In this document: piece by piece, positions 2,435-41,940 of the stretch
Position numbering within the stretch: position 1 is the first letter of the stretch
How the letters are laid out: each line of letters begins with the position of its first letter
Assembly (NCBI GenBank): GCA_017382615.1
Contig: JAFNZX010000220.1
Span: 1-45,002, forward strand
Length of the DNA stretch: 45,002 nt
Reading direction: 5' to 3'
Source: Clostridia bacterium
Lineage (GTDB): Bacteria > Bacillota > Clostridia > Oscillospirales > CAG-272
The notes under the pieces: model-generated
Seen by the model: the letters and a program-made list of their open reading frames with translations, nothing else
The model's database searches: none
Told to the model about the DNA's origin: nothing
Made by a program: the position numbers and the translations under genes

Positions 2435-2989
2435 TCAAACCTCCCCTGCACGGCGCAGCTTTTCGAATTTTGCGCGCAGCACGCATGCCTGCGTTTTGGA
2501 ATCGGGTACCTCTCCGCGGCAAATACGATCAACAAGCTCATCAAGCGGAATGCGCTCCACCTCAATAAACTTGTCCTCGTCAAGATCGGTCTCGCCAAAA
2601 CGCAAGCCCTCTGCCATGTACATATGAATGACCTCGTCGATCAGTGCAGGCGTGGTGTACAAGGGCCCAAGATAGGTCAGCTTATCGCAAGAAGCACCCG
2701 TTTCCTCACGCAGCTCACGCAAAGCCGCCTCGGTAGGGTCTTCATCGGGCGCATCCAGCTTGCCCGCGGGAATTTCCAGCACCATCTTGCGGTGCGCGTA
2801 TCTGTATTGCTTGACGCAAATGACCTCGTCCTCGTCGGTCAGGGGCACGATGCAGACAGCACCTACGTGCTTGCAGTATTCGCGAAAGCCCGTTTTGCCG
2901 TCGGGCAGCAAAATATCGTCACGGTACAGGTGCAGCACCTTGCCGTCAAAGATCAGTTCGCTGTGTAATTGCTTTTCGGTATAATCCAT
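2435..2989 (-). CDS. nudF: NUDIX hydrolase, ADP-ribose pyrophosphatase type
   Basis: This is the C-terminal 184 aa of track ORF 2435..3730, starting at MDYTEKQL (ATG 2989..2987). It carries a Nudix box, GKLDAPDEDPTEAALRELREETG. The remaining N-terminal part of the track ORF is antisense to tcdA and is rejected. Confidence 0.85.
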   Translation of the reverse strand: MDYTEKQLHSELIFDGKVLHLYRDDILLPDGKTGFREYCKHVGAVCIVPLTDEDEVICVKQYRYAHRKMVLEIPAGKLDAPDEDPTEAALRELREETGASCDKLTYLGPLYTTPALIDEVIHMYMAEGLRFGETDLDEDKFIEVERIPLDELVDRICRGEVPDSKTQACVLRAKFEKLRRAGEV

Positions 2990-3019
2990 GGTATCTCTCC
3001 CATCTTTATAATCAATATT

Positions 3020-3048
3020 ATTATACATGATATTACAAAATTTGTAAA
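3020..3048 (-). promoter_or_regulatory. SigA-type promoter for the nudF-GDPD-murQ-CM-DAHPS operon
   Basis: The minus strand reads TTTACA, a 17 nt spacer, then TATAAT. This lies about 30 nt upstream of the nudF ATG. Confidence 0.6.
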
Positions 3049-3052
3049 GGGC

Positions 3053-3081
3053 TTGCGAGAAAGAAAAAAATGTGATACAAT
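3053..3081 (+). promoter_or_regulatory. SigA-type promoter for tcdA
   Basis: TTGCGA (3053-3058), a 17 nt spacer, then TACAAT (3076-3081), with a TG at the extended -10 position (tgTGaTACAAT). Confidence 0.55.
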
Positions 3082-3109
3082 AGAAGCACAAATTCTGCGA
3101 GGTGACAAA

Positions 3110-3826
3110 ATGGATTTTGGACAGCATACGCGCTCCGTACCTCTGCTTGGCGAGGACGGACTTGAAAAATTGCAAAACGCAAAGGTCGCCGTGTTTGGCA
3201 TTGGCGGCGTGGGAGGACATTTGTGCGAAGCACTTGCACGCGCAGGCGTGGGGGAGCTGCATCTGTTTGACAAGGACACCGTGTCCTTGACCAATATCAA
3301 CCGCCAGGCGGTCGCGCTGCATTCTACCGTTGGGCAGCCCAAGGTGGAGGTCATGCGCGCGCGCATTGCAGATATTAACCCCGATTGTCGCGTGGTAACG
3401 CACGAGATATTCTATATGCCCGAGAATGCGGATGATTACGATCTTACCGCATACGACTATATCGCTGACGCCATTGACACCATCAGTGCCAAGGTGGAGC
3501 TGATCTGCCGCGCCAAGGCAGCAGACACACCCATCATTTCGGCAATGGGCGCAGGCAACAAGCTTGACCCTTCGGCATTCCGCATAGCAGATCTCTCTAA
3601 AACGCAGGTATGCCCACTTGCCAAGATCATGCGCCGCGAGCTGGGCGCACGCGGCATCAAGCACCTCTGCGTTGTCTATTCCGAGGAAAAGCCGCAGCCC
3701 TCGCGTCTGCCCGCAGAGTACGGTAAGCACGTCCCCGCCTCACTCTCCTTCGTCCCCTCTGCCATGGGACTTATCATGGCAGGCAAGATCGTGCGCGACC
3801 TTACGGGCGTGCTGGCGCAATTTTAG
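3110..3826 (+). CDS. tcdA: tRNA threonylcarbamoyladenosine dehydratase (ThiF/E1-like)
   Basis: Track ORF 2969..3826, trimmed to MDFGQ (ATG 3110). It contains VAVFGIGGVGGHLCEALARAGVGELHLFDKDTVSLTNINRQ and CPLAKIMRRELG, typical of TcdA/CsdL. Confidence 0.88.
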   Translation: MDFGQHTRSVPLLGEDGLEKLQNAKVAVFGIGGVGGHLCEALARAGVGELHLFDKDTVSLTNINRQAVALHSTVGQPKVEVMRARIADINPDCRVVTHEIFYMPENADDYDLTAYDYIADAIDTISAKVELICRAKAADTPIISAMGAGNKLDPSAFRIADLSKTQVCPLAKIMRRELGARGIKHLCVVYSEEKPQPSRLPAEYGKHVPASLSFVPSAMGLIMAGKIVRDLTGVLAQF

Positions 3827-3894
3827 GGCAGGATTTGACCGCACCCAACAAGCGATATTTTTCCGGCAAGCACAGCAGTATACATGCAGAACGA

Positions 3895-3931
3895 GGCTGA
3901 GTCCATTGGATTCAGCCCCGTTTTCTTTATT
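3895..3931 (+). terminator. rho-independent terminator after tcdA (may also serve the convergent TIR gene)
   Basis: The stem ggctgagtcc (3895-3904) pairs with ggattcagcc (3908-3917) with one G-U pair. A T-rich tail, ccgttttctttatt, follows. Confidence 0.6.
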
Positions 3932-3950
3932 CCGTTTTCTTTATTCCGTT
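3918..3950. repeat. 14-bp tandem direct repeat (2.4 copies) spanning the stop codon of the TIR-LRR gene
   Basis: ccgttttctttatt occurs at 3918-3931 and again at 3932-3945, followed by ccgtt at 3946-3950. The stop codon (3941-3943) lies in copy 2. Confidence 0.9.
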
Positions 3951-5716
3951 ATCTTCACGCGCGGACATCCCTCAAAGGAATCCTTGGCAATAAAGCGAAC
4001 GCTCTTGGGAATGATCACCTTGCGCAGCATTTTACAGTGTGAAAACGCCTGGTGATCGATCATGCCGATACCAAACTTCAAATTCAGCGTGCTTAACGAC
4101 GTGCAATTCATAAACGCCTGGCGGGAAATTGACTCCATGCTATCTCCCATATTTACCTCGATCAGGTTCAGGCAGTTGCGGAATGCCCCCGCACCGATGC
4201 GAGTAACACTATCCGAGAAATTCAATTGAGAAATGGAGAGGTTGCCTTCAAAAGCATAGTCTCCGATTGATTTGATGTATGTCGTCGTAGGCAACTGGGC
4301 ATCTGCAGCAGCACTGATCAGACAATGGTCAACCTTATCTACAAGGCAGCCCGCATGCATCACGTAAACGGGATGCTGTGCATGCACGGTCACACCGCCA
4401 CAGTTATTGAAGGCAGCCGCGCCAATGTGCGTCACCGTCGATCCAACGCTGAATACAGCACGCCTGCAATCAAAGAAAGCAAACGCACCGATGTGCATCA
4501 GCGTCTTAGGGAAAATCACCTTTTCCAGCAAATGACACCCCTGGAACGCAGCAGTTTCTATATGCGTCAATCCCTCGTGGAAAATCACCTTCTCTAAGTT
4601 GACACAATCCAAAAAAGCATTGGGTCCAACCTTCTCTACAGTGGGAGGAAGCACCACGCAATGCAGGTTTTTATTCTTGGCAAATACACCGCTTCCGATT
4701 TCCTTGACACCGTACGGCACAACCGCAATTCCCTCTTCCTTGCGGCTGGGTCGGTATCCTGTCAGCTCACCCAAAACAATCTTAAAGCCCTTGATGTTGT
4801 TCTGCGCAAAATTGCGCTCGTACGTATTGCGCACCTCTTGCGCCAATGCTTGACGAGCAAGCTGCTGCACCGTCTGTCCCTCGTCAGCCTTGTTGATCGG
4901 CACGGGCTTTTTCTGTGCAGTCATGGTTGGCTTGGGCGCAGGCTTTGTGGCAACCGTTGGCTTGGGTGCCGAGGTGATCGGCTTAGTTACAGTCATAGCA
5001 GGCCTGGGCTGGGCTGTGGACGGAGCGGTAGGCGTTACAACCGAATTGGAGGCAAGCGGCGCAGCGACCGGAGCGTCGGTCGTAGATGCGGGCGCTTGGG
5101 GGGCAGACGCCTCCGGCTTGGTTGCGGCGTTTGCCTGATATCCCGGCATCAATTTTTCAATATACTCCGGCGGCAGCGTGCCAAGCAACTGCATCAGCAT
5201 CTCGGGAGAAAGTTCGGAAGATATGCCGGGCGCACTTGGTGCAGCAGCCTCAGGCGTGCTGACGGGCTGCGTCTTTTCGGGCGCGGTTTTCTTTGCCTTT
5301 TCCTCCTTGGGGGCAACGGGTGCTACAGCGGGATGACGCAAACGCACCGTCCGCAGCAGCTCATGACAAGCAGGCTCGAAATTTTGATATGCCTCAATGC
5401 GCTGGTTATTTGAAATCACAAAGTCAATCGCGTCAATCAGCTCAGAGTCGTCGACGTGGAAAGGAAGTATGTACTTATCAAACTTGACTGCACGGTCAAT
5501 CTCCTTTTGCACCCACTGGGACTTTTGGGATGCCTCGGAGACAATCAGTATAAACAGATCACACTTACGGATTGCCGTAGGGATCTCGGACATATAGTTA
5601 CTGCCCGCAGAAATCGATTCGGGAGCCATCCAACAAGGATAGTTATTCTCCTCCAAAAGTGCCCTGATCTTTTTTGCAATATCGTATTCTTCACTCTTAT
5701 AACTGATAAAGACCAT
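3941..5716 (-). CDS. cytosolic TIR-domain protein with Pro/Ala/Thr-rich linker and C-terminal BspA-type leucine-rich repeats (591 aa)
   Basis: Track ORF 3941..5737, trimmed to MVFISYK (ATG 5716..5714, GGAGGA 5 nt upstream). The TIR_2-like N-terminus reads FISYKSEEYDIAKKI...CDLFILIVSEASQKSQWVQKEIDRA...ILPF. A ~170-aa low-complexity P/A/T/K linker follows. The C-terminus has about 10 repeats of the LRR_5 pattern (I..xAFxxCxxLxxVxxP). There is no signal peptide and no TM segment. Confidence 0.85.
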   Translation of the reverse strand: MVFISYKSEEYDIAKKIRALLEENNYPCWMAPESISAGSNYMSEIPTAIRKCDLFILIVSEASQKSQWVQKEIDRAVKFDKYILPFHVDDSELIDAIDFVISNNQRIEAYQNFEPACHELLRTVRLRHPAVAPVAPKEEKAKKTAPEKTQPVSTPEAAAPSAPGISSELSPEMLMQLLGTLPPEYIEKLMPGYQANAATKPEASAPQAPASTTDAPVAAPLASNSVVTPTAPSTAQPRPAMTVTKPITSAPKPTVATKPAPKPTMTAQKKPVPINKADEGQTVQQLARQALAQEVRNTYERNFAQNNIKGFKIVLGELTGYRPSRKEEGIAVVPYGVKEIGSGVFAKNKNLHCVVLPPTVEKVGPNAFLDCVNLEKVIFHEGLTHIETAAFQGCHLLEKVIFPKTLMHIGAFAFFDCRRAVFSVGSTVTHIGAAAFNNCGGVTVHAQHPVYVMHAGCLVDKVDHCLISAAADAQLPTTTYIKSIGDYAFEGNLSISQLNFSDSVTRIGAGAFRNCLNLIEVNMGDSMESISRQAFMNCTSLSTLNLKFGIGMIDHQAFSHCKMLRKVIIPKSVRFIAKDSFEGCPRVKITE

Positions 5717-5764
5717 GTTTTCCTCCAAGCCGCTCACATCTTATAAAATAATACCACATCTTAT

Positions 5765-5793
5765 ATTATATAACACGATTCTGCATTTGTCAA
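5765..5793 (-). promoter_or_regulatory. perfect consensus SigA promoter for the TIR-LRR gene
   Basis: The minus strand reads TTGACA (5793..5788), the 17 nt spacer aatgcagaatcgtgtta, then TATAAT (5770..5765). This lies about 50 nt upstream of the start codon. Confidence 0.75.
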
Positions 5794-5874
5794 CCGCGAA
5801 AGATCTTTTTCTGTCACAAAAAAGTCAAAAATTCGTCAAAAAAGATAACGCATTGCACCATATAAATACAAATC

Positions 5875-5912
5875 CGGACACATCGCCCTGCGGATGCAGG
5901 ATGATGTGTCCG
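5875..5912 (-). terminator. terminator hairpin after the 5964..6782 lipoprotein gene
   Basis: cggacacatc (5875-5884) pairs with gatgtgtccg (5903-5912). On the minus strand the hairpin is followed by atttgtattt. Confidence 0.6.
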
Positions 5913-5963
5913 TAAATTGTTATGTGATTTTTATACTGTCGCCAAGGTGTATCCGGGAAGGGA

Positions 5964-6782
5964 TTACTTCCAATCGGGTACCCAGGAGTGGTCTGCGATG
6001 ACTTCGGAATACAGTACGCCGGGAACCTCGCAGCGGATACCGTAGCGAGAGCCGCCGCTCCAGTCATCATCGTAGTAGTAGATCAGGCATTCGTCGTTTG
6101 CGTAGCAGTCAATAGAGCCTTCACCGTCAAGCTCAACGGAAATGGTGATCATATCGCCGTGCTGATAGTTTTCGATCGGTGCGGAAACCTGCAGCTCGGT
6201 CCAGGGCTCGCCGTCGTAGCCTACCTTAGCGAGATACAGCGTAGCGTCATCGGATACGAACAGGAAGTAGTAGGTGGGGCCATCCTCCCAGAAATAATAC
6301 TGCTCGTTGACGTCCTCCTCCATACCGAAGATAATGCCGTTATCATTGATATACTGAGCGGGTGCAGTAAAGGTTGCGGTGATCTTACCGCTTGCCAGTC
6401 TGTCGTTGGTAACGATAAACATGCTGTTTTCCTTCGTAGACAGCGCGCAAGCATCCTCCAGGTTGAACTCACCGGAAGCGTGATAGCCGTGCAGAATTCT
6501 GTCGTCCAGGGGGTTGATGACGGGGGCGTCAAGTACGTCGTAAGGAGCGTTCTCGGGCTCAGTCCATGCTACCGTGGTTTGCTCGGAGGTTTCGGGAATG
6601 GTGACCTCCTCTTCGGTCGTAGGCTCCTCAGTAGGTGCCTCGGTGGGAGCTTCGGTGGTGGTTTCGGGTGCTTCGGTTGTCACATCCGCTTCGGTAGTGG
6701 TTTGTTCAGGGGTCTTGGAATCGCAGCAAGCAAACGCAGCTACCATCACAATCGCCATCATTAAAACAAGAAAGCGTTTCAT
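5964..6782 (-). CDS. lipoprotein with Thr/Glu/Pro linker and ConA/LamG-like (DUF1080-like) jelly-roll domain
   Basis: Track ORF 5964..6890, trimmed to MKRFLVLMMAIVMVAAFACC (ATG 6782..6780, GGAGGA upstream). It has a signal peptide followed by Cys, then a TEAPETTTEAPTEAPTEEPTTEEE linker. The beta-rich C-terminal domain (YYFLFVSDDATLYLAKVGYDGEPW...ITISVELDGEGSIDCYANDE) has only a tentative fold assignment. Confidence 0.7.
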   Translation of the reverse strand: MKRFLVLMMAIVMVAAFACCDSKTPEQTTTEADVTTEAPETTTEAPTEAPTEEPTTEEEVTIPETSEQTTVAWTEPENAPYDVLDAPVINPLDDRILHGYHASGEFNLEDACALSTKENSMFIVTNDRLASGKITATFTAPAQYINDNGIIFGMEEDVNEQYYFWEDGPTYYFLFVSDDATLYLAKVGYDGEPWTELQVSAPIENYQHGDMITISVELDGEGSIDCYANDECLIYYYDDDWSGGSRYGIRCEVPGVLYSEVIADHSWVPDWK

Positions 6783-6861
6783 CGTGTTTGTTCCTCCGTA
6801 ATGAAAAATAAATGTGTCCCAAGATACGCGCATAACTGCGAGATCTTGTCTTGATTTATTT

Positions 6862-6890
6862 ATTTTAGCACACTTTCCCAAAATCGTCAA
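6862..6890 (-). promoter_or_regulatory. SigA-type promoter for the 5964..6782 lipoprotein gene
   Basis: The minus strand reads TTGACG, a 17 nt spacer, then TAAAAT, with an extended -10 TG (gTGcTAAAAT). Confidence 0.6.
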
Positions 6891-6909
6891 TAGTTTTTTA
6901 AAATTCTTA

Positions 6910-6938
6910 TTGCAATTGTGTCAAATTTATGGTATACT
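6910..6938 (+). promoter_or_regulatory. SigA-type promoter for the GH43 gene (implies a ~190-nt leader)
   Basis: TTGCAA (6910-6915), a 17 nt spacer, then TATACT (6933-6938). Confidence 0.5.
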
Positions 6939-7132
6939 GAACTCCTACGAGCATTTGCCGCACAAGACCGAACAAAATCGCCCCCCCGGGCAACAGGTTA
7001 GCATTTTCGGCGAGCTCTTATGCGCAAGGACGTGTTCTTGCTTCACGCTATCCCAATCCATCAAACAAATATTTGTCCCCGGAGCGACTTTTTTTGACCT
7101 CCGTGTGGCTATTTCAGGTACGGTAATCTATT

Positions 7133-9637
7133 ATGAAACGAAAATCAGCATTGATCCTTTCCTTATTGCTTGCGGTGTGCACGTTGGCTTGCTGTCAATC
7201 CGGCGATCCACCGCCTTCCCCCGACAGCACAACGACCACTCTTCCCGAACAGACACAAGCAGAGCTCACTGACGACAAAGAACAGCAAGGAGTGCCCATG
7301 GAAAACGTTACAACGTATCAAAATCCCCTGCTTGACTACCAAAGTGACCATGCGTGGCGCGGCTACGGCTTTGGAGATCCGTTCGTCATGCGCTACAACG
7401 GCACGTATTATTTGTACGTCAGCACCAAGGACGGCAGCGTAGGCATCAAGTGCTGGTCCTCGCCTGACCTTGTGAACTGGACGTACGAGGGACTGTGCTC
7501 GCAAGACCCTGTCACCAAAAGCGCATACGCCCCCGAGGTCTACTACTACAACGGTTATTTTTATATGTACACCTCACCTGCCGGTAACGGACACTACGTT
7601 TTGCGCAGCACCTATCCCACCAAGGATTTCAAGGTCGTAACAGATAATATGGGGATGTCCATCGACGGATCTGTCTTTATTGACAACGACGGAAAGTGGT
7701 ATTTCTACACTGCCGGGCACGGTGCTCTGAAGGTCTACGACATGGTCTCCCCCACGCAAATGCGCCGCGGCACAAGCCTTTCCTGCGCCACAGTCAACGG
7801 TGCGTGGACGGAGGGCGCAATGGTGGTTTATCACGATGGCTACTATTACCTCACTTATACAGGCAACCACGTGCTCAGCCCCTCCTACCGCATTCTTTAC
7901 GGTGTTTCGGACAGCTCTCCGCTCAATTTTGACAGTATGCCCGATCAAAACCCGCTTTTGATCAGCACCGCGGGCGATATTTTGGGCATTGGACACAGCT
8001 CAACCGTAAAGGGTCCCGATCTCGACAGCTATTATATCGTCTATCACGCCCTGCTTGATACAATGCCCAATCGCACCATGAACATTGACCGCATTGTGTT
8101 CAACGGCAAGAAAATGGAGATCGTCGGTCCCACCGTCACACCGCAGCAGGTGCCCGACATGCCCGACGTTTACCACCATTTCGCCCCCGGTTCTTCCCTA
8201 AAGGGTTGGTCCCTGATTGGCTCGCTGACTGCAGGCAGCGGTGGGCTATGCCTGACCGCGGACAGCATGCTGGTATGCAAAACACCCTTCTTGGGTGACT
8301 TTACTGCCGAATACAACGTTACCTCAATTGCACAGGGATGCTTGGCAGGCGCGCTCTTTGCATATACCGATGCAGAGAATTTCGGTGCTTGCTACTTCTC
8401 CCCCGATACGCAAAAGCTCATCATTGAGTTCACGGTAGCAGGAGAGACCACGCGCACCGAAGCAGATACCGTCCGCTCCTTCGGGGAGGATACGCGCTTT
8501 GACTGCCTGCAAGCCTTGCAGATTGAGCGAAGCGGCAGCACCTACACCTTTTATATGAACGACCGCCTTGTGTGCACGCTGGAAAACTCTGCCCTTGTCG
8601 GCGGTGCGATCGGCTATATCAGCAAGGGCGGTGAGGCATCCTTCGGCTTTATCGGCGGCACAGGTGCCGTGGGCGGCTACGGTGCTGCAGATCAGTTCAC
8701 AACCGTTTCGGACAAGGCAGGCTTTATCCCCGCTTATCAAGCCACAAACGCCCCCGAAACCCTTACTTCGGCACAAGGCGAGCGCGTCGTTCCCATGTAT
8801 GCGGACACTGCGCTTTGTTATCGCATTCTGGCAGCCGAGAGCGGCTCGTACGACCTTGCCCTGCTCTGCCATGACGTCAAGGGCGGCGCAGCAATCGAGC
8901 TGTACGTAGACGATAAATCCGTTGGCACGTACGCGCTTGACGGCTCTGACCAATACACCAACACTGCCGTTCTGCGCACGATTCCACTCTCAAAAGGACA
9001 ACACGTGATAACGATCAAGCTCACGTCAGGCAGCCTGCTGGCAGAAAGCCTTACGATTCGGAAAGGAGAAGCCGTCACGCAGTTCTCCCTGACCTTTGAA
9101 AATGACCTGCAAGCTCCCGCGTACCAAGACGGTGGCTGGGAGATCAAAAACGGCACACTGCGCACGTCGGACGGCAGTCGCTTCGGCAAGGTGTTGTACG
9201 GCTCACCTAACTGGGGAGATTACCAAGCGCAGGTCACTCTAACCCCCTCCTCTTCCCCCAACTGCGGACTATTGGTGCGCGCCACCAACCCGGGCAATCC
9301 CGCCTTTCTTGGCACACAGCCATCGCATAACGATGCGGTAACTGCAACGGACTGGGTGCAGGGCTACTTTGTGGGACTGACGGGCGAGGGCGTGATCCTT
9401 GGCAAGCAAGGATACGGATACACGGAGCTTGCCCGCGCCGACGGACAATTCCGCGCAGGAAAAGCGTATACGCTTAAGGTCATCTGTACCGGAGCACGCA
9501 TACAGGTTTACGTAGACGGTACACTGTACCTGGACTACACAGACCCCGACCCTTATATGCAGGGTATGGTAGGCATACGCACGCACAATTGCTTTGCCGC
9601 CTTTGACAACCTGCTCATCACCCCCGCCGGGCAATAA
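7133..9637 (+). CDS. secreted multidomain glycoside hydrolase family 43 protein (GH43 beta-propeller + ConA-like + CBM-like + DUF1080/3-keto-disaccharide-hydrolase-like domain)
   Basis: 834 aa with the signal peptide MKRKSALILSLLLAVCTLACC. GH43 blade motifs are present: GDPFVMRYNGTYYLYVS, APEVYYYNGYFYMYTS, DGSVFIDNDGKWYFY and TEGAMVVYHDGYYYLTYTG. The C-terminal WEIKNGTLRT...GLLVRATN...GYFVGL...YTLKVICTGARIQVYVDG...GMVGIRTHN resembles DUF1080. Confidence 0.85.
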   Translation: MKRKSALILSLLLAVCTLACCQSGDPPPSPDSTTTTLPEQTQAELTDDKEQQGVPMENVTTYQNPLLDYQSDHAWRGYGFGDPFVMRYNGTYYLYVSTKDGSVGIKCWSSPDLVNWTYEGLCSQDPVTKSAYAPEVYYYNGYFYMYTSPAGNGHYVLRSTYPTKDFKVVTDNMGMSIDGSVFIDNDGKWYFYTAGHGALKVYDMVSPTQMRRGTSLSCATVNGAWTEGAMVVYHDGYYYLTYTGNHVLSPSYRILYGVSDSSPLNFDSMPDQNPLLISTAGDILGIGHSSTVKGPDLDSYYIVYHALLDTMPNRTMNIDRIVFNGKKMEIVGPTVTPQQVPDMPDVYHHFAPGSSLKGWSLIGSLTAGSGGLCLTADSMLVCKTPFLGDFTAEYNVTSIAQGCLAGALFAYTDAENFGACYFSPDTQKLIIEFTVAGETTRTEADTVRSFGEDTRFDCLQALQIERSGSTYTFYMNDRLVCTLENSALVGGAIGYISKGGEASFGFIGGTGAVGGYGAADQFTTVSDKAGFIPAYQATNAPETLTSAQGERVVPMYADTALCYRILAAESGSYDLALLCHDVKGGAAIELYVDDKSVGTYALDGSDQYTNTAVLRTIPLSKGQHVITIKLTSGSLLAESLTIRKGEAVTQFSLTFENDLQAPAYQDGGWEIKNGTLRTSDGSRFGKVLYGSPNWGDYQAQVTLTPSSSPNCGLLVRATNPGNPAFLGTQPSHNDAVTATDWVQGYFVGLTGEGVILGKQGYGYTELARADGQFRAGKAYTLKVICTGARIQVYVDGTLYLDYTDPDPYMQGMVGIRTHNCFAAFDNLLITPAGQ

Positions 9638-9687: not shown

Positions 9688-11556
9688 ATGAAAAAAGTAT
9701 TGTCTATGCTTTTGCTTGCGCTGATGTGCGCGTCTCTGTTCGCATGCACGCCCGATCAGCCAATTGAGCAAGGCACGCAAGCACCGCAAACCGATCCCAC
9801 TGACGCAACGACCGACGCAACAACCGACGCCTCTACCGAGGAAGCAACCACACCCGGACAAGAGGAAACAACCGACGAGCCCGAGCCTCCCGCTCCCCAG
9901 CCCGTTGCACTGTACCAGTTAGCTCCCGAAAAGAACAGCCTGCTGCAATCCTACGTTATCAAGACCGCGAACGGCAAGCTGATCGTCATTGACGGCGGCG
10001 TTGACGGTACAGGCAAGGATCATCCTGCCTACATGCCCGCTGCACTGCGTGCCATTGCAGGCGTTGGCGAAGGCGATTACTTCGAGGTAGAGGCATGGTT
10101 CCTCTCCCACGCGCACAAGGATCACATGTACGAGCTTTCCAAGATGCTCTCGGATTACAGCGCAGACTCCAACTACAAGATCAACAACATCTATTTCGAT
10201 TTCCCCAACTTCGGCAGCGAGGAATACCCCGGCAACAATGCCGATATGGAGATCTCGAAGATCCGCGAGAACCTGAACAAGTACGGCGAGGTGATCGGTG
10301 CCGGTGCAAATTATTACGATCAGATCAACGGCGCGCTCATCAACAAAGAATCCGTTTCCAAGGGTCTGTCCCTGGAGATCGACGGTGTGCGCATTGACGT
10401 GCTGCAGACATGGGACGCAGCAGACGGCACCTCCAATATCAATGACACCTCTATCGTACTTCGCATGACCATTGGCGAGCAGAAGGTGCTCTTCCTCAAC
10501 GACCTGGGCGCAATCGGCGGCAGACGCCTGCTTGCAACCTACGGCGACGCACTCAAGAGTGACATCGTACAAATGGCGCACCACGGTCAGGGCGGCGTAA
10601 ACAAGGATGTATACGACGCCATCGACGCACAGGTACATCTGTGGCCCACGCCTATCTGGGTATGGAACAACGCAGAAGGCACTTATCAGATCGACGAGGT
10701 CAGAGAATGGCTGTACGGCAAGAACTTCTTGGAATCCGACGAATACGACATCGTCGCAAGCCTGTATCAAAGCTATCCCAAAAAGATTAACCGTGTCAAC
10801 GCATGGAGAGACGTTCTGGACGGCATGAAGATCGAGTTCCCCTACGTTCTTCCCGAGCGCATCATTGAAACCACCGAGGCTACTACTGCAGAGCCCATCG
10901 AGCCCGTTGAGCATAATTACGTCAAGGATGGTCTGGTTGCCTACTATTCCGGCACGCAGAGCACCCGCGGCGGTCATAATACAAGCTCCGACGTATGGGA
11001 GGATCTGGTTGGCGGTCACGATATGAAGATCACCAAAAACGACAGCAATTACTTCTCCGAGCAGGGCTTGCGCGCAAGCAACGCCAAGCACAACTTCCCC
11101 GATGCCATTGTAGAGACAGTCAACGGGCAGGCGTTTACCATCGAGCTTTTGTTTGGCGACTTTACCTCCATTGGTAGCAACTTCAACACCTTTATCAGCA
11201 GCGCAGACGACCATTTCGCACTCTTCCGCCGCAACGATGGGAACGTTCTGGAGCTCAAGACGTTGGGTAACGGACGTATCAAGATCCAGGGCGGACTTGA
11301 AAAACTGCAAAACACGCTGATCACTATTACCTACGCGCAGAGCGGAAAGTGCTGCATTTACGTAAACGGTGTACTCGCAGGAGAGATCAACACGGCACCC
11401 GGCTCTTTGAGCGCAGGCAACTTCTTTATCGGTCACTCCGATCCCGCGAAGGCATTTGATACCACCTATCGCTCTATCCGCTTCTACAACCGCGCCCTGA
11501 CGGCAGAAGAAGCAATGGCAAACGCCGTCACCGACGGTGTTGCAACAGCCAACTGA
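9688..11556 (+). CDS. lipoprotein with MBL-fold (ComEC-C-terminal-like) metallohydrolase domain fused to a LamG (Laminin_G_3) domain
   Basis: 622 aa. The signal peptide is MKKVLSMLLLALMCASLFAC, followed by a DATTDATTDASTEEATTP linker. MBL motifs are present: EAWFLSHAHKDHMYEL and QMAHHGQGG. The C-terminal LamG module runs from LVAYYSG...WEDLVGGHD to YRSIRFYNRALTAEEA. Confidence 0.75.
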   Translation: MKKVLSMLLLALMCASLFACTPDQPIEQGTQAPQTDPTDATTDATTDASTEEATTPGQEETTDEPEPPAPQPVALYQLAPEKNSLLQSYVIKTANGKLIVIDGGVDGTGKDHPAYMPAALRAIAGVGEGDYFEVEAWFLSHAHKDHMYELSKMLSDYSADSNYKINNIYFDFPNFGSEEYPGNNADMEISKIRENLNKYGEVIGAGANYYDQINGALINKESVSKGLSLEIDGVRIDVLQTWDAADGTSNINDTSIVLRMTIGEQKVLFLNDLGAIGGRRLLATYGDALKSDIVQMAHHGQGGVNKDVYDAIDAQVHLWPTPIWVWNNAEGTYQIDEVREWLYGKNFLESDEYDIVASLYQSYPKKINRVNAWRDVLDGMKIEFPYVLPERIIETTEATTAEPIEPVEHNYVKDGLVAYYSGTQSTRGGHNTSSDVWEDLVGGHDMKITKNDSNYFSEQGLRASNAKHNFPDAIVETVNGQAFTIELLFGDFTSIGSNFNTFISSADDHFALFRRNDGNVLELKTLGNGRIKIQGGLEKLQNTLITITYAQSGKCCIYVNGVLAGEINTAPGSLSAGNFFIGHSDPAKAFDTTYRSIRFYNRALTAEEAMANAVTDGVATAN

Positions 11557-18988: not shown

Positions 18989-21316
18989 ATGAAAAAAAGC
19001 ATACTTTGCGTCATACTGGCTGTGCTGATGGTTTTGCCCCTGGCAGCCTGCACACCAAGCACCACCGAGCCCCCAACCGACACCGAAATCACGTCATCCA
19101 TTGATACGACGGATACTGAGCCGAGCGAGGAAAGCTCTGCCGAGCAGACCACGCAGGAGGCGCAGACCGAGCCCCCCTTGGAGCTTGACGTGCCCGCCTA
19201 CGAGGATATCGGGCTTTCCTCCATTCTCCCGGGCATTGATAACAGCGTCACCCTGAACTACAATTTTGCCGATTACAAATACAGCAAGCTGCGTTCTGAC
19301 AACAAGCTGGTCTTTACCTCCAACAAGGATTACGTGGTAGACAAGGGCGGCTTGACGCTGACGGCGGACGGCTGGAACAGCGTGGGCTTTGCGCATACAC
19401 TCAAGGAAGCCTATACCGCCAAGACACATATCACCAACCGCGGTGCTGAGAACAACGTGCGCTCCATCATGTTCGGCTGCCGCGTCACGCGCTCCAACCA
19501 CTTGTACATTGACAGCGGACTGTGGTTCACCTTCTCCGAAAACGCAGTCTATGCTCACGTCAAAAACGGCTTTACCAAGCTGATCGGAAATGAATTCCCC
19601 TTCAACGCCAAGGACGGCTTGGACGTGACCATCAAGGACGACGGCACAAATATTGAATGCTACGTCAACGATGTGCTCGTTGCCAAGGCGGTAGTCGAGC
19701 AGGAATGCCTTGTGCTCTATGATGCAGAGGGTGCTGAGGTAGGTCGCACGCCCGATCTTGCCCGCATTGCACACGGTGATACCTTAGGATACGTGCGCAC
19801 CATGTCCCACTTTGCGGATTCCACCACCAAATCCATGAGCCTTGTGACGGGCACCGTCATCCCCTACGCCCCCAAGGACACCATCACCGAGCTCAAAGCG
19901 GGATATTCCTATCTGCTCTCGGACAAAACGCAGATCAAAACGCAATACCCCATCACCCTGCACGACGGCGTGACGTTGCTGGACGTGCGCGCCGCTGCTG
20001 ACCTCTTCGGTTTTGCCTGCACTATCTCCGAGGACGGCACGCAAGCTACGCTGACCCGCGACAACGCAACGCTGACCTATACCGTAGGTACAGCCGCAGT
20101 AGATTTCAACGGCACAGCATACGCCTGCCCCACCACGACTTCGCGCGGCGGCAATATTCTGATCTCGGTTGACTATCTGGCACGCTGGATGGGCTACACC
20201 GTCACTTTGGAAGAGAGCTCGGTTTACGTAAGTGCCACCGCTGATACACTGACCGACGCACGCAAACAGGAAATAGCTGACCGCTATGCACTTTACGCCG
20301 ACGTCATTTACAACTACGACGACGTGGAGATCGAGCAGACCGGCGTTGGCAAATACGAGCAAACGCCCTATGAGGATCGCCTTGTGGGCATTGCCTACTC
20401 CACCTGGCTGTGCACCAAGATCATTACCTGGGGCAAAAACACCTGGGACACCCCGCTTTACGGCAACTACTACTCCGATGACCGCGACATGATCGCCAAG
20501 CACGCAGAGCTTTTGCGTGACGCAGGCGTGGACTTCATCTTTATCGACTGGACCAACAACACCACCTACGATCCCGCAACTATGCGAGAGTCCCGTTCCG
20601 ATTTCCGCATGATCGAGGAAGCAACCGACCTTGTCTTTGAGATATGGTCTACGATTGAGGGTGCACCCAAGATCTGCATTTTCGCAGGTCCCGGACATTC
20701 CGGCTATGATAACGTCAAAAACGGCAAACATCAGAAGAAGGTAGACCAAATCTATTCCTCTTACGTAGAAAAATATCCCGATCAGTATTTCCACTACCAG
20801 GGCAAGCCCCTGCTTATGTGCTACGGCGCAACGCCCAACCAGTACGGTGCGCGTCCCAAGTGGACGGACGACCGCTTTACCATTCGATGGGCAACCGGCT
20901 ACGTGGGTCAGCAGGACGGGCTTTATAATCCCAAAACCATGGCGACCCGCAACCAATGGTGGAGCTGGGAGGAGAGAGGTCTGCAGCCTTACTCCGTATA
21001 TGACAACCGCGTGGAATGCGTGACCTGCACTGCAGCCAGCCGTGCTCAGGGTTCTGAAGGTGACAGCGGCTACATTCCCGCTTATGGCAGAGAAAACGGT
21101 CTGACGCTCAAAAAGCAGTTCCAGCGTGCAAACGATCTGGGCGCGGGCATGGTCATTCTGATCTCCTGGAACGAATGGACCACGGGCGAGCAGCCCTCCC
21201 CCGAGGTCTCCAAGGACCTTGAGCCCTCCGTGGTTCACGGCACGTTCTATTACGACCTGCTTTGCGAGCAGATCAAAAAATTCAAGGGCAAGATCAGCAC
21301 CGACGCAGCAGAATAA
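18989..21316 (+). CDS. secreted lipoprotein: ConA-like domain + copper-amine-oxidase-N-terminal-like domain + GH99/WbsX-like TIM-barrel putative glycoside hydrolase domain
   Basis: 775 aa with the canonical lipobox MKKSILCVILAVLMVLPLAAC. The middle segment ITLHDGVTLLDVRAAADLFGF...ISVDYLARWMGYTV resembles a Cu_amine_oxidN1-type stalk domain. The C-terminal ~325 aa contain YYSDDRDMIAKHAELLRDAGVDFIFIDWTNN and ILISWNEWTTGEQ, which follow GH99/GH71/WbsX-like patterns. Confidence 0.65.
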   Translation: MKKSILCVILAVLMVLPLAACTPSTTEPPTDTEITSSIDTTDTEPSEESSAEQTTQEAQTEPPLELDVPAYEDIGLSSILPGIDNSVTLNYNFADYKYSKLRSDNKLVFTSNKDYVVDKGGLTLTADGWNSVGFAHTLKEAYTAKTHITNRGAENNVRSIMFGCRVTRSNHLYIDSGLWFTFSENAVYAHVKNGFTKLIGNEFPFNAKDGLDVTIKDDGTNIECYVNDVLVAKAVVEQECLVLYDAEGAEVGRTPDLARIAHGDTLGYVRTMSHFADSTTKSMSLVTGTVIPYAPKDTITELKAGYSYLLSDKTQIKTQYPITLHDGVTLLDVRAAADLFGFACTISEDGTQATLTRDNATLTYTVGTAAVDFNGTAYACPTTTSRGGNILISVDYLARWMGYTVTLEESSVYVSATADTLTDARKQEIADRYALYADVIYNYDDVEIEQTGVGKYEQTPYEDRLVGIAYSTWLCTKIITWGKNTWDTPLYGNYYSDDRDMIAKHAELLRDAGVDFIFIDWTNNTTYDPATMRESRSDFRMIEEATDLVFEIWSTIEGAPKICIFAGPGHSGYDNVKNGKHQKKVDQIYSSYVEKYPDQYFHYQGKPLLMCYGATPNQYGARPKWTDDRFTIRWATGYVGQQDGLYNPKTMATRNQWWSWEERGLQPYSVYDNRVECVTCTAASRAQGSEGDSGYIPAYGRENGLTLKKQFQRANDLGAGMVILISWNEWTTGEQPSPEVSKDLEPSVVHGTFYYDLLCEQIKKFKGKISTDAAE

Positions 21317-21330
21317 GGAGGATGGCGAGC

Positions 21331-22335
21331 ATGGAAAACAGATTTACATCCGTCCTGCCCATTGGCGTGGGACTTTATGAAAAAACGCCTGCCGAGCAGC
21401 GCAAGGTGGGCATTGCCTACACCACTTGGCATTGCGACGTTCTGCCCGGTTGGGGCGCAAAAACCTGGGATCTCCCCTTGGACGGTCCTTATAACTCGGA
21501 TGATCGCGACGTCATCTACAAGCACGCCATTTTGCTGCGCGATGCAGGGATCGATTTTATCTTCGTGGACTGGACCAACAACACCTGCTACGATCCCGTA
21601 CGCCAGCGCGATAGCGCACCCACCTTCCGCATGATCGAAGAGGCAACCGACGCGCTCTTTGAGGTGTGGTCCAAGATTGAGGGTGCCCCCAAGATCTGTC
21701 TGTTTGCAGGTCCCGGGCACAGCATGCCCGAAAATTTGGAAAACGGCAACCACCAAAAGAAGGTGGATCAGATCTGGCGCGATTACGTGGCAAAGTATCC
21801 CGATCTTTACTATAACTACGACGGCAAGCCGCTACTCATGTGCTACGGTGCTACGCCCAACTTCTACGGAGCTGATCCCACGTGGACAGACGACCGCTTC
21901 ACGGTGCGTTGGGTCACGGGCTACGTAGGCCAGCAGGACGACCTTTTCGATGCAGAAACGCTGCGCTCCTATCACTTCTGGAGCTGGGAGGAGCGTGCTA
22001 CGCAGACCTACACGGTTAAGGACGGCAGAGTGGAGTGCATTTCTGTCACGGCATCCAGCCGTGCGCAGGGCAAGGAAGGCGACCGCGGCTACATTCCCGC
22101 CCGCGGCAGAAGAAACGGTGAGACATTCCGCGAGCAATTCGGGCGCGCATGCGAGCTTGGAGCAGGCATGGTACTGGTGATCTCCTGGAATGAGTGGAAC
22201 AAGGGTGAGCAGCTTTCGGTAGAGATCTCCAAGGATCTCGAGCCCTCGAAGGTTCACGGTACCTTCTACTACGACCTGCTGTGCGAGCAGATCAAGAAGT
22301 TCAAGGGACAGATTGAGATCACGGCAGAGGAATAA
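21331..22335 (+). CDS. cytoplasmic stand-alone paralog of the GH99/WbsX-like putative glycoside hydrolase domain (334 aa)
   Basis: Track ORF 21262..22335, trimmed to MENRF (ATG 21331, AAGGAGG 9 nt upstream). There is no signal peptide. By eye it is roughly two-thirds identical to residues ~450-775 of the preceding protein (YNSDDRDVIYKHAILLRDAGIDFIFVDWTNN, LVISWNEWNKGEQ, HGTFYYDLLCEQIKKFKG). Confidence 0.7.
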   Translation: MENRFTSVLPIGVGLYEKTPAEQRKVGIAYTTWHCDVLPGWGAKTWDLPLDGPYNSDDRDVIYKHAILLRDAGIDFIFVDWTNNTCYDPVRQRDSAPTFRMIEEATDALFEVWSKIEGAPKICLFAGPGHSMPENLENGNHQKKVDQIWRDYVAKYPDLYYNYDGKPLLMCYGATPNFYGADPTWTDDRFTVRWVTGYVGQQDDLFDAETLRSYHFWSWEERATQTYTVKDGRVECISVTASSRAQGKEGDRGYIPARGRRNGETFREQFGRACELGAGMVLVISWNEWNKGEQLSVEISKDLEPSKVHGTFYYDLLCEQIKKFKGQIEITAEE

Positions 22336-31935: not shown

Positions 31936-31964
31936 TTGACAGCATATCAGTTTCAAGGTATAAT
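31936..31964 (+). promoter_or_regulatory. perfect consensus SigA promoter for the 32031..33620 gene
   Basis: TTGACA (31936-31941), a 17 nt spacer, then TATAAT (31959-31964). Confidence 0.75.
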
Positions 31965-32030: not shown

Positions 32031-33620
32031 ATGAAACTTACGAGACGCTACCTTTCCCTGGCAGTTGCCTTGACCATGATCCTTGGCTGCTTTGTATGCC
32101 TTGGCTTTACCGCTTCCGCTGCAGCTGAGCCCGAGATCGTCCGTGACGGTCTGGTCGCTTGGTACGACGGTTCCAACAACTCCAATGGTTATCAGGATTC
32201 TGAAACCACCATCTGGAGAGACCTCTCCGGCAACAAAAACCACTTCAACGTTCGTGTAAACGAGACCAACTATTGGACCCAAAACGCTTTCCACTTGGAT
32301 TCCGCATCCTACTACTTCCCCCAGGCAGTTGTTGACCTTGTCAACACTGACTCTTACACCATTGAGTTCTCCGCAGGCGACCTTGACCTCAAGGCAACTA
32401 ACTGGAACACGCTGATGTGCTCCGATAACGATGAGTTCTCTCTCTTCATCCGCGTTCCCGAGCAGAACGAGGGCAGAGACTACCTGGAGTACAAGTACAA
32501 CGACAAGAACCAGGATCGCCCCCTGGTTGACGACGGTGCTGCAGCACTTGAGAGTGACGGCATTGGCTCTACCATTGCAATCACCTTTGATATGAATGCT
32601 GCTGAAGGTCCTGTCTGCATCATCTACATCAACGGTATTGAGAAAGGCAGAGGCGTGCCCGAGTACACCAACATTGCCGACACCCTGACCATTGGTCACG
32701 ACAACCCTCAGCGTGCATGGTCCGCTGACCTGTACAGCATTCGCTTCTACGACAGAGCGCTTACCCCTGCAGAGGTAAAGGACAACGCAGAGGCTGATGA
32801 TGAAAAGTACCGCTATGGCACCTATTATCCTCCTAAGGTGGAATACGTTGATGACGGTGAGACCTTTGAAGACGCGATGACCGGCGAATATTTCAACAAC
32901 ATCATTCCTATGAACGCTGAGCTGGGTTTGATTGATACGCAGGGCTTCTACAGCACGCACTCCATCAACAAGGAGATCTACGGTGATTGGACCGGCGTAC
33001 GCGTTAATCCCAATGCCGAATACGATCTTGATGAAGGCGGCGCGCTTCTGACTCCCATGATCCAGATCAACTATTCCAAATACTGCCGTAAGGCAGGCCT
33101 GACCCTGCTCAACGGTGAGGACATTCCTTATGCAGTTGTGAAGCTCAAGGCACAGGGCGAAAGCATTACCAAGGTAAACCTGGTTCCCGTTGCCGGTGAT
33201 CATCACTCCTGGTTTGAGGCAGTTAATCATACTGCTGAAAACGTTAACGCAATCAAGGCAAACGGCGAGACCGAGTATCTGATCTTCGATCTGTCCTACA
33301 CCTGGGAGGGCGGCATCAACCTGATCTGCCTTGCATTCCCCGAGATGACCGCTGACGCTACCGTATACGTTGAAGAGATCCAGCTCTTTGCTACCAAGGA
33401 AGAGGCTTACGCTTACGCAGGCGAGGAGATCCCCACCAAGGCTCCCGAAACCGAAGAGCCCACTACCGAAGCTCCCACAGCTGAAGTTACCACCGACAAG
33501 GCTGAAACCACCACCGAGGCTGAAAAGTCCGAGGGCGGCTGCAAGTCCGCAGTTGCTATGTCCCTGGTTGCACTGGTAGCAGTTGCTGCTGCTTGCGTAG
33601 CACTCAAGAAGAAGGACTAA
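32031..33620 (+). CDS. secreted LamG (Laminin_G_3) domain protein with unassigned middle domain, Thr/Glu/Pro linker and C-terminal hydrophobic tail anchor
   Basis: 529 aa with the signal peptide MKLTRRYLSLAVALTMILGCFVCLGFTASAAA. The LamG module runs from LVAWYDGSNN...WRDLSGNKNH to LYSIRFYDRALTPAEV. The linker is PTKAPETEEPTTEAPTAEVTTDKAETTTEAEKSE, and the C-terminus is GGCKSAVAMSLVALVAVAAACVALKKKD. Confidence 0.75.
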   Translation: MKLTRRYLSLAVALTMILGCFVCLGFTASAAAEPEIVRDGLVAWYDGSNNSNGYQDSETTIWRDLSGNKNHFNVRVNETNYWTQNAFHLDSASYYFPQAVVDLVNTDSYTIEFSAGDLDLKATNWNTLMCSDNDEFSLFIRVPEQNEGRDYLEYKYNDKNQDRPLVDDGAAALESDGIGSTIAITFDMNAAEGPVCIIYINGIEKGRGVPEYTNIADTLTIGHDNPQRAWSADLYSIRFYDRALTPAEVKDNAEADDEKYRYGTYYPPKVEYVDDGETFEDAMTGEYFNNIIPMNAELGLIDTQGFYSTHSINKEIYGDWTGVRVNPNAEYDLDEGGALLTPMIQINYSKYCRKAGLTLLNGEDIPYAVVKLKAQGESITKVNLVPVAGDHHSWFEAVNHTAENVNAIKANGETEYLIFDLSYTWEGGINLICLAFPEMTADATVYVEEIQLFATKEEAYAYAGEEIPTKAPETEEPTTEAPTAEVTTDKAETTTEAEKSEGGCKSAVAMSLVALVAVAAACVALKKKD

Positions 33621-38910: not shown

Positions 38911-38970
38911 TGCGTCAAGTCATATCAATCGTGCCGGTGTCACCCTGCGTGACGCCATGGAGGTGTTTTT

Positions 38971-41154: not shown

Positions 41155-41155
41155 A

Positions 41156-41920: not shown

Positions 41921-41940
41921 CTGCACAAAAAGGAGCGCAC

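Follow-up and report, generated by a model that had tools for sequence, protein, structure and literature searches.

A predicted soluble TIR-LRR_5 protein of an uncultured Clostridia bacterium has the layout of a minimal innate-immune receptor

In most characterised bacterial defences built on a TIR domain, sensing is carried out by a partner protein or by a fused signal-sensing or NTPase module, and the TIR enzymes that cleave NAD (NADases), among them SARM1, SPARTA, TIR-STING, TIR-SAVED and AbTir, need higher-order assembly. P4 satellites carry a validated single-gene TIR-STAND-TPR system (PMC9122126), and associations of a TIR with leucine-rich repeats (LRRs) in bacteria are mentioned for Chloroherpeton thalassium and Rhodopirellula baltica (PMC7145615). 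Beyond the latter passing mention, our literature search returned no described bacterial TIR-LRR_5 system and none in which a transmembrane (TM) segment joins the two domains (TIR-TM-LRR). Here we describe a gene from a 45,002-nucleotide stretch of an uncultured gut Clostridia bacterium (assembly GCA_017382615.1, contig JAFNZX010000220.1, positions 1 to 45,002; hereafter the window), which encodes an N-terminal TIR domain, a long disordered linker and a C-terminal LRR_5 solenoid in one chain. The layout looks like that of a minimal innate-immune receptor, and the chromosomal setting gives no direct support for defence. Our preferred reading, to which we assign a probability of roughly 0.45, is that the product is a soluble, autoinhibited TIR NADase that is clustered by a ligand bound to its LRR and that probably acts in conflict or immunity.

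The open reading frame (ORF) listed for the locus, 3941..5737 on the minus strand, opens with a GTG codon. The likely start is the ATG at 5716, since it is preceded by GGAGG at a spacing of 5 nt and most homologues begin MVFISYKS or MIFISYKS; the predicted protein then has 591 residues. A Pfam search assigns residues 2–110 to TIR_2 (E = 5.6e-21, 75.7 bits against a cut-off of 28), as an initial annotation made from the sequence alone had proposed for the N-terminus, and also matches ThsB_TIR (E = 8e-6, 26.6 bits, cut-off 21.2) and TIR (E = 1.9e-4, 21.7 bits, cut-off 21.3). An AlphaFold2 model built on 15 homologues (mean predicted local distance difference test score, pLDDT, of 76.9) is confident at residues 1–127 and 283–591. 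Block means in the TIR domain are about 78–92, and the N-terminus of the protein is the first beta-strand of the TIR fold. A Foldseek comparison matches the TIR model to SPARTA TIR-APAZ with a root-mean-square deviation of 2.1–2.8 Å over 131–136 columns, and also to the SARM1 TIR domain (TM-score of about 0.7, normalised to the target).

The domain carries the motif S66-x-W68-x-x-x-E72, whose three named residues are invariant in all 15 family members, and the equivalent glutamate is invariant across 67 wider TIR relatives. In a phmmer alignment, E72 falls on E77 of MapSPARTA TIR-APAZ (residue counted by hand), which we take from the SPARTA literature to be the catalytic glutamate, and E72 is also aligned with the corresponding residue of 7uxr and Cat1. 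The placement of Glu72 in the initial annotation therefore agrees with the SPARTA alignment and with its invariance in the family, and the structural comparison with TIR-APAZ and SARM1 supports the fold. Column entropy in the family alignment is lower in the TIR domain (0.64) than anywhere else in the protein. Together, the profile, alignment and model suggest that this is probably an enzymatic, NAD-cleaving TIR domain.

The C-terminal solenoid was assigned to LRR_5 by Pfam in two stretches (E = 2.3e-51, 173 bits against a cut-off of 27.7), which bears out the roughly ten BspA-type repeats counted initially. These repeats are 23 residues long, are anchored by phenylalanines at positions 345, 368, 391, 414, (437), 489, 512, 535, 558 and 581, and are interrupted by a 29-residue insertion at about residues 441–469. 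Block-mean pLDDT in this domain is mostly about 85–97. Foldseek matches it with E = 4e-12 to 4h09, 4gt6 and 4fs7, and PcpA and TpLRR were also matched; identity to the BspA-like proteins 4h09, 4gt6, PcpA and TpLRR is 19–23%. Its column entropy, 1.39, lies between that of the TIR domain and that of the linker (about 2.0). Separately, LRR_5 ORFs on human-gut phage contigs (MT837481.1, MT839669.1, MT836339.1 and others) are 33–35% identical to this LRR, which makes them as close to it as the best non-family bacterial LRR_5 matches.

The two domains are joined by a linker in which proline, alanine, threonine and lysine make up 57% of residues. Its pLDDT falls below 50 at residues 132–169 and 191–280, and both its length and its sequence vary among homologues. 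The low-complexity Pro/Ala/Thr/Lys character described in the initial annotation stands, and its length of about 170 residues is corrected to 155. Within the linker lies a short motif, LSPEMLMQLLGTLPPEYIEKLMPGY, that is present in 12 of the 15 family members and in none of the others among 312 proteins checked. Its column entropy is 1.19 against about 2.0 in the flanking linker, and helices are predicted at residues 171–179 and 183–189, with a pLDDT of about 60. We consider this motif a candidate inhibitory element, one that three family members lack.

By Kyte-Doolittle hydropathy and Pfam, no signal peptide, TM segment, lipobox, sortase signal, SLH, dockerin or LXG/WXG element was found in the 15 members. 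The maximum 19-residue hydropathy mean is 1.12 in the window protein and at most 1.58 in all 15 homologues, against 2.5–3.4 in true TM relatives. The lack of a TM segment looks real, because relatives that expose their LRR have an obvious TM helix with a K/R-rich cytoplasmic side. The protein is thus predicted to be cytosolic and soluble, as initially claimed, and no cryptic secretion signal emerged from the hydropathy scan.

These observations bear on a different explanation, in which the protein is displayed at the surface or released as a BspA-like LRR protein, or serves as an effector against a eukaryotic host or predator, leaving the cell by unrecognised export or by lysis, with its TIR acting outside. 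The closest LRR_5 structures (4gt6, PcpA, TpLRR) are indeed those of surface proteins, the best non-family LRR_5 matches carry dockerin or other extracellular modules, linkers rich in proline, alanine and threonine are typical of Gram-positive surface stalks, and the lipoprotein-type LRR_5 gene beside the paralogue at locus L003 encodes an exported product. However, export features are missing from all 15 members, the chain starts directly with the first strand of the TIR fold, the relatives with an exposed LRR are readily recognised by their TM helix, and cytosolic LRR_5 proteins exist in related operons, such as the LRR_5 proteins without signal peptides in the operon of the relative P0031. 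We therefore regard an extracellular role as very unlikely. An 839-residue LRR_5 lipoprotein (L026:6634-9153, minus strand) with a signal peptide and an LTAC lipobox is encoded divergently beside the TIR-LRR_5 paralogue P0006; as the two genes adjoin, exported and cytosolic LRR_5 proteins are encoded there side by side.

Full-length homologues form about 15 clusters at 90% identity, are 42–99% identical to the window protein, and come from metagenomes or from metagenome-assembled genomes (MAGs) labelled as Eubacteriales bacterium. A pseudogene or a relic of TM loss was ruled out, as the 15 homologues are intact and have strongly conserved TIR and LRR domains. The family is absent from most Clostridia, and the number and presence of paralogues differ among related genomes, with two in one MAG. 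An exhaustive phmmer search with the TIR domain reached 25,537 representatives at E ≤ 1e-3 and 88 at E ≤ 1e-30, and the 67 top relatives were scanned with Pfam for partner domains. LRR_4 (31 proteins), LRR_8 (28), Tubulin_2 (9) and protein kinase (4) were the partners found, together with AAA_16/NACHT plus TPR (P0037 and P0100) or FtsK in a few and LRR_5 in one only. TIR plus LRR is the commonest architecture among the nearest relatives of this TIR, but there it comes with a TM segment. Judged by these domain assignments, the architecture as such is not unprecedented in the lineage, and what appears distinctive for the window family is the absence of a membrane segment and the use of LRR_5.

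The membrane-spanning relatives are numerous. One strong hydrophobic helix, located at residues ~164–310 and mostly at 170–220, occurs in 31 of the 67 relatives, the same number as carry LRR_4, and a K/R-rich stretch precedes it in 5 of 5 such sequences inspected. This stretch would place the TIR domain in the cytoplasm and the LRR outside, which is the topology of Toll-like receptors (TLRs) with the domain order reversed. The TIR-TM-LRR family comprises at least 428 clusters at E ≤ 1e-20, about 600–690 residues long, from Oscillospiraceae, Schaedlerella and other Clostridia, and its members (P0139, P0199, P0220, P0237 and others) bear generic public names only, 'leucine-rich repeat domain-containing protein' or 'TIR domain-containing protein'. 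The three contexts examined (L018, L021 and L022) are multi-gene operons. A TIR+HD_3 protein is encoded directly upstream in one; a Macro-domain protein (O-acetyl-ADP-ribose deacetylase-like, 1e-58) directly downstream in one; and in one a CAP12-type TIR protein lies downstream and an FtsK/SpoIIIE ATPase upstream. Among the relatives, some operons encode two or three distinct TIR proteins. Some further relatives (P0069–P0093 and others) contain 4–7 tandem TIR stretches and reach 2,330 residues.

Two other proteins, P0017 and P0018, have TIR domains 83–85% identical to that of the window protein, followed by about 400 residues of helical repeats and a C-terminal membrane anchor. It is conceivable, although we judge it quite unlikely, that the window protein is a soluble adaptor or co-sensor in a multi-TIR network and co-assembles with membrane-anchored TIR paralogues of the P0017/P0018 or TIR-TM-LRR type, in the manner of MyD88 and TIRAP with TLRs; it would then not stand alone as a system. 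The close TIR identity of P0017 and P0018, the perfect promoter that the P0017 gene shares with the window gene, the 31 single-pass TIR-TM-LRR proteins among the scanned relatives, the operons with several TIR genes, and the family-specific linker motif, which could be a docking peptide, all fit such a network. They are met by the lack of a second TIR gene in the 45-kb window and by a pattern scan that detected no P0017-like gene in the MAG with two family members, a fragmentary assembly; moreover, the similarity between the TIR domains may reflect recent domain shuffling.

TIR and LRR_5 have also been combined without a TM segment at least four times independently, in the window family and in at least three unrelated forms. 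In the first of these, P0031, the operon includes a TIR-only protein alongside the LRR_5 proteins mentioned above; the second, P0043, carries zinc ribbons; and the third (L030:2711-4621 and L031) has LRR_5 at E = 9e-128 and about 20 residues between TIR and LRR. The L030 gene lies downstream of an MBL-fold gene and of a 482-residue gene without a Pfam match. Because the combination recurs in unrelated forms, it is not accidental.

Upstream of the window gene is a sigma-70/sigma-A type promoter (Table 1) that is a perfect consensus, as the initial annotation had recognised. Only two perfect TTGACA-N17-TATAAT sites occur in the 45-kb window, compared with 0.02 expected, and a perfect promoter is found at the equivalent position 5' of homologues in L001, L002, L003 and L014 and of the P0017 paralogue in L012. 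The best reading is that the gene is transcribed constitutively from a strong promoter. As this promoter is conserved across loci, the protein is probably always present, and autoinhibition would then be required. The second perfect site in the window lies at 31936-31964 on the plus strand, just 5' of a LamG-domain ORF (32031-33620). An 11-nt direct repeat, TATAAGATGTG on the minus strand, occurs twice within 5735-5770, with one copy over the -10 box and the other in the 5' untranslated region, and is not conserved in the orthologues.

The monocistronic layout described initially holds, and hairpins are present on both sides of the gene. The upstream one is most likely the terminator of the lipoprotein gene (5964..6890, minus strand) that precedes it. 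The downstream one, between the convergent tcdA-like and TIR-LRR genes, is followed on the plus strand by two T-rich 14-nt tandem copies, CCGTTTTCTTTATT x2, at 3918-3945. Read on the minus strand, one of its G-T pairs becomes an A-C mismatch and its T-run is poor, and it would serve tcdA better than the TIR-LRR gene as a terminator. The tandem repeat overlaps the stop codon of the TIR-LRR gene. A scan of 3700-7200 against Rfam matched no RNA family.

Table 1 Features of the TIR-LRR_5 gene, its surroundings and the related P0017 locus. Coordinates are those of the window unless a locus is named.
Feature	Coordinates	Strand	Basis and remarks
Coding sequence of the 591-residue TIR-linker-LRR_5 protein (likely start)	3941..5716	-	ORF listing, Pfam, 15 full-length homologues, AlphaFold2 model; stop codon 3943..3941
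TIR domain, residues 1-127, flavodoxin-like fold, WxxxE motif	5336..5716	-	Pfam, AlphaFold2, Foldseek, column entropy
Codon of Glu72, putative catalytic glutamate	5501..5503	-	Invariant; aligned to TIR-APAZ Glu
Disordered Pro/Ala/Thr/Lys linker, residues 128-282 (155 residues)	4871..5335	-	Composition, pLDDT, variability
Short helical linker motif, residues 169-193	5138..5212	-	Family alignment, model
BspA-type LRR_5 solenoid, residues 311-591, after helix 283-302	3944..4786	-	Pfam, AlphaFold2, Foldseek
Ribosome-binding site GGAGG	5722..5726	-	5 nt before ATG 5716; read from sequence; (G)GAGG kept in upstream alignment
Sigma-70/sigma-A type promoter, TTGACA-17 nt-TATAAT	5765..5793	-	-35 at 5793..5788; -10 at 5770..5765; 12/12 match
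Upstream hairpin, between TIR-LRR gene and lipoprotein gene	5875..5912	-	17-nt arms, 88% complementary, 4-nt loop; terminator-like matches
Hairpin between convergent tcdA and TIR-LRR genes	3895..3917	unstranded	10-bp stem, T-run on + strand
NUDIX gene	2435-2989		Near TIR-LRR gene
tcdA-like ORF	2969-3826	+	Listed TTG start 2969 overlaps start of NUDIX gene
P0017 gene	L012:1788-3476		Perfect TTGACA-17-TATAAT promoter at L012:1714-1742

The domains of the window protein evolve at very different rates. Against the syntenic orthologues at L002, L014 and L027, the TIR domain is 82–86% identical, the LRR 57–62% and the linker 29–44%, while four flanking proteins are 73–94% identical. The corresponding nonsynonymous divergences (dN), calculated against L002, are 0.078 for the TIR domain, 0.287 for the LRR, 0.564 for the linker and 0.065–0.146 for the flanking proteins. 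The TIR domain is therefore constrained like a housekeeping enzyme, and the LRR changes several times faster while still under net constraint. We compared dN alone, because synonymous sites are saturated (proportion of synonymous differences, pS, of 0.46–0.77) and ratios of dN to synonymous divergence (dS) are unreliable. Between window 3941-5716 and L002:10001-11854, pS is 0.64 in the TIR domain and 0.77 in the LRR, with 0.46–0.60 in the four flanking genes; the higher values could mean that codon constraint is weaker, or that the allele is older or has recombined. The variable positions of the LRR are spread over all faces of the solenoid and do not mark out one of them as hypervariable.

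Composition sets the gene apart only weakly. The TIR part has a G+C content of 45.6%, as against 51.6% for the whole gene, 53.8% for the window and 53% for tcdA; the AT-richness noted initially therefore applies to the TIR part, whereas the gene as a whole is close to the window and tcdA is far from the 70% or so once estimated. At third codon positions the G+C fraction is 0.58 in the TIR-LRR gene and 0.60–0.70 in its neighbours. A foreign origin by composition was rejected, as the third-position values are close and the low G+C content of the TIR part follows largely from its amino-acid composition.

We hypothesize that in the resting state the N-terminal TIR domains would be held apart and inactive, with the LRR_5 solenoid serving as the ligand-binding module. 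Binding of a multivalent or oligomeric ligand, most likely one derived from an invading phage or another foreign element, would gather several molecules, and the long flexible linker would let their TIR domains assemble into a higher-order form. Glu72-dependent cleavage of NAD+ would follow, leading either to NAD+ depletion with growth arrest or to an ADP-ribose-type signal for an effector encoded elsewhere. In this scheme we infer the NADase activity, the autoinhibition, the clustering as mode of activation, the nature of the ligand and the immune role. The last is favoured by the pairing of a conserved effector with a fast-evolving sensor, by paralogue turnover and the recurrent invention of TM-less TIR+LRR_5 proteins, and by the company that the TIR subfamily keeps, namely fusions to STAND/TPR and neighbours with Macro, HD or further TIR domains. 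Fusions of the subfamily to STAND/TPR, kinase, tubulin-like and FtsK-like modules likewise support a logic of sensor plus effector, and modular fusions of this kind, as annotated, are typical of conflict systems.

The genomic setting weakens this case. The TIR-LRR gene has a tcdA-like ThiF gene on one side and a lipoprotein gene on the other, carbohydrate-utilisation functions take up the remainder of the 45 kb, and the neighbours, including the NUDIX gene, are as listed in the initial annotation. The start of tcdA is probably the ATG at 3110, leaving a 120-bp divergent promoter region, because the 237-residue orthologues can be aligned with it from residue 45 onwards only. A tcdA-NUDIX-GDPD-murQ block adjoins the TIR-LRR gene in four lineages (the window, L002, L014 and L027), which indicates that the gene is chromosomal and has been inherited vertically at this locus. 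The other side is rearranged, and about 29 kb of glycan genes present in the window have no counterpart at this point in L002. In a comparison of L002:1-9700 with window positions ~5900-35000, orthologues of window genes 34984-44160 (GH38, GDPD, rhamnosidase) are located immediately upstream of the L002 copy of the TIR-LRR gene; since they are found there in the opposite relative orientation, the ~29 kb in the window represent an insertion or a rearrangement. Elsewhere, one family member sits between PEPCK and an MBL-fold gene, and others follow a Metallophos gene and precede corC. The L003 paralogue stands beside its exported LRR_5 lipoprotein gene and genes orthologous to 18989-22335 of the window, a position that is without a family member in the window.

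Several observations from this setting and from the protein itself weigh against an immune role or against parts of the mechanism proposed above. The conserved tcdA-NUDIX-GDPD-murQ neighbourhood is one of them, and other paralogues lie among PEPCK, LexA, NrdD, CorC and DUF711 genes. No defence island is recognisable around the gene: neighbours scanned against PADLOC matched no defence model beyond the level of a generic fold or domain, the protein itself matches PADLOC and NCBIfam through its TIR domain only and far below family cut-offs, and known defence genes are absent from about seven independent family contexts, a small sample. Searches of phage and plasmid records by tblastn and of IMG/VR contigs returned matches at the level of the LRR only and no copy of the gene. 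With about 15 clusters the family is small, and its members come solely from metagenomes and from MAGs of uncultured Eubacteriales. No sign of positive selection emerged, dS being saturated and an LRR dN of 0.29 implying purifying selection overall, and the variable LRR positions occupy all faces of the solenoid and not one. No autoinhibitory element was identified in the TIR-LRR protein. Finally, its nearest TIR relatives are membrane-anchored, and the true site of action may therefore be the membrane.

Much of this would suit a housekeeping or regulatory role, in which the LRR recognises an endogenous ligand of the cytoplasm, such as an envelope turnover product or a partner protein, and the TIR domain, as an enzyme or scaffold of normal physiology, either produces a signal from NAD or serves to nucleate a complex. 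Stable vertical inheritance beside the same block in four lineages, housekeeping neighbourhoods for the whole TIR-LRR_5 family, a strong constitutive promoter kept across lineages, net purifying selection on the LRR and the lack of any mobile-element association in the phage, plasmid and IMG/VR searches are what such a role would predict. Yet divergence in the LRR and linker far outpaces that in the flanking proteins, which is unexpected for a receptor of a conserved endogenous ligand. Paralogue number and presence vary among close relatives, the family is missing from most Clostridia, and the fusions of this TIR subfamily include STAND/TPR modules such as are typical for conflict systems. On balance, we find a physiological role somewhat unlikely. 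The one-gene immune sensor proposed in the initial annotation thus retains its domains, glutamate, cytosolic location, monocistronic layout and want of a partner, whereas its context has proved to be housekeeping, with conserved synteny of non-defence genes in four lineages and no link to mobile elements in the phage, plasmid and IMG/VR searches; this largely matches what the initial annotation had itself named as grounds for refutation, and it argues against a classical mobile defence gene. An abortive-infection role, as hypothesised there, is neither refuted nor demonstrated.

A number of neighbouring genes were considered as possible partners and rejected. NUDIX, GDPD and murQ are read in a single direction, divergently from tcdA, and neither they nor tcdA share a transcript with the TIR-LRR gene. 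At L025, an independent TIR-LRR_5 gene has a NUDIX neighbour that is not orthologous to that of the window, and a functional link was not used as evidence; the initial annotation had likewise held the proximity to be probably coincidental. The tcdA-like gene is not taken as a CBASS Cap2-like E1, since its PADLOC E1-E2 matches reflect the generic ThiF fold and its best NCBIfam match, TcdA, is below cut-off, and the resemblance of the MBL-fold protein at 9688-11556 to LmuA, DRT or Avs1a is generic MBL-fold similarity in a secreted LamG protein. As a separate observation, TIR-LRR genes of independent lineages repeatedly have a NUDIX, MBL-fold, Metallophos, Macro or fused HD_3 gene no more than one or two genes away (window 2435-2989; L008:12282-13067; L009:4812-5966; L011:8804-9943; L025:1913-2512; L030:156-1070; L021:9001-10014; L018:4057-6990). 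These phosphoesterase or ADP-ribose-processing genes belong to different families, none of them matches PADLOC, and the pattern could be due to chance.

What appears new here is a TIR enzyme fused to a repeat sensor with neither an NTPase nor a membrane anchor, given that TIR-repeat fusions are already known. A broader proposal, possible but in our view doubtful, is that the protein is a minimal pattern-recognition receptor without NTPase or membrane anchor, with the LRR as sensor and the TIR as executor, and part of a Clostridial TIR-receptor repertoire that also includes hundreds of single-pass TIR-TM-LRR proteins, tail-anchored TIR proteins and multi-TIR giants. If this were so, the direct coupling of LRR to TIR known from TLRs would work in bacteria, in both cytosolic and surface-sensing forms, and the accompanying enzymes (Macro, HD, Metallophos, MBL and NUDIX) would act on the product made from NAD, processing it or holding it in check. 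A repeat sensor tied to a TIR enzyme by no more than a flexible tether would represent the simplest known receptor-effector arrangement for TIR, and such a protein would test whether induced proximity alone fires a TIR NADase. Among bacterial proteins, the TIR-TM-LRR family of Clostridia would provide the first candidates for a TLR-like layout that senses something outside the cell; gut and rumen metagenomes contain its members in abundance, and a role in sensing phages, hosts or predators would bear on microbiome ecology. Should the protein instead signal in normal physiology, the known uses of enzymatic TIR domains would be widened beyond conflict. The interest of the locus rests mainly on its minimal design and on its link to a large, unstudied bacterial family with TLR-like topology.

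Set against described systems, the TIR-LRR protein lies outside Thoeris, CBASS/Pycsar, SPARTA and the STAND/NLR class, as the defining partner or domain is absent each time. It shares the fold and the position of the catalytic glutamate with the TIR effectors of defence (SPARTA TIR-APAZ, ThsB, TIR-STING/TIR-SAVED, the Pycsar/CAP12 TIR and AbTir), and activation by higher-order assembly, which is established for them, would by inference apply to it as well. In contrast to these effectors, it has no APAZ with prokaryotic Argonaute (pAgo), ThsA, CD-NTase, STING, SAVED or cyclase as partner or module. For Thoeris, a ThsA-type effector (SIR2/SLOG or Macro/TM) is absent from the 45-kb window and from beside the family homologues, and a match at family level is lacking (best PADLOC ThsB, E = 1.7e-5; NCBIfam Thoeris III ThcB4, 32 bits against a cut-off of 220). 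For CBASS and Pycsar, the protein has no STING, SAVED or cyclic-nucleotide sensor and the window no cyclase, and the PADLOC SAVED_TIR match is limited to TIR residues 2–79. The structural match to SPARTA covers about 135 TIR residues and no APAZ, and no Argonaute gene lies in the window. More generally, no ThsA, CD-NTase, pAgo or STAND module was found in the protein or in the window, which agrees both with PADLOC and with the lack of a known defence partner reported initially.

The STAND/NLR receptors (plant TNLs, the P4 TIR-STAND-TPR protein and Avs/bNACHT) resemble the window protein in uniting an N-terminal TIR and a C-terminal repeat sensor in one polypeptide. Between TIR and repeats, however, Pfam finds no NTPase (NB-ARC/NACHT/AAA_16), the disordered linker taking its place, and the PADLOC TIR-NLR match (E = 0.025) spans TIR residues 38–79 only. 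Without an NTPase, oligomerisation by a nucleotide switch cannot apply. The P4 TIR-STAND-TPR system (PMC9122126) is the nearest tested analogue, although, unlike the window protein, it has an NTPase.

Animal TLRs also combine an LRR sensor and a TIR signalling domain in a single chain. They differ in having the opposite domain order and a TM segment, while the window protein has BspA-type 23-residue repeats and keeps the catalytic glutamate; it is not a TLR, given its lack of a TM segment and its reversed order, and nothing indicates that the two architectures share an ancestor. With the BspA-like LRR_5 proteins (4h09, 4gt6, PcpA, TpLRR) it shares the solenoid fold. Those proteins are secreted or anchored at the surface, whereas the window protein has an N-terminal TIR domain and, as it carries no export signal, is not a surface protein of that type. 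The cases in PMC7145615 are similar in that TIR and LRR occur in a bacterium without an NB domain; they are reported as domain co-occurrence with the canonical LRR model PF13855, with no analysis of function, topology or family. The Clostridial TIR-TM-LRR proteins (P0139, P0199, P0220) have a TM segment at about 170–220, LRR_4/LRR_8 repeats and multi-gene operons, in contrast to the TM-less, LRR_5-bearing and monocistronic window protein. Nevertheless, they share with it the N-terminal TIR and C-terminal LRR, a similar size (about 600–690 residues in their case), hosts among the Clostridia, and one TIR subfamily, with 45–52% TIR identity, the motif CWMAPESI..G..Y and the invariant glutamate.

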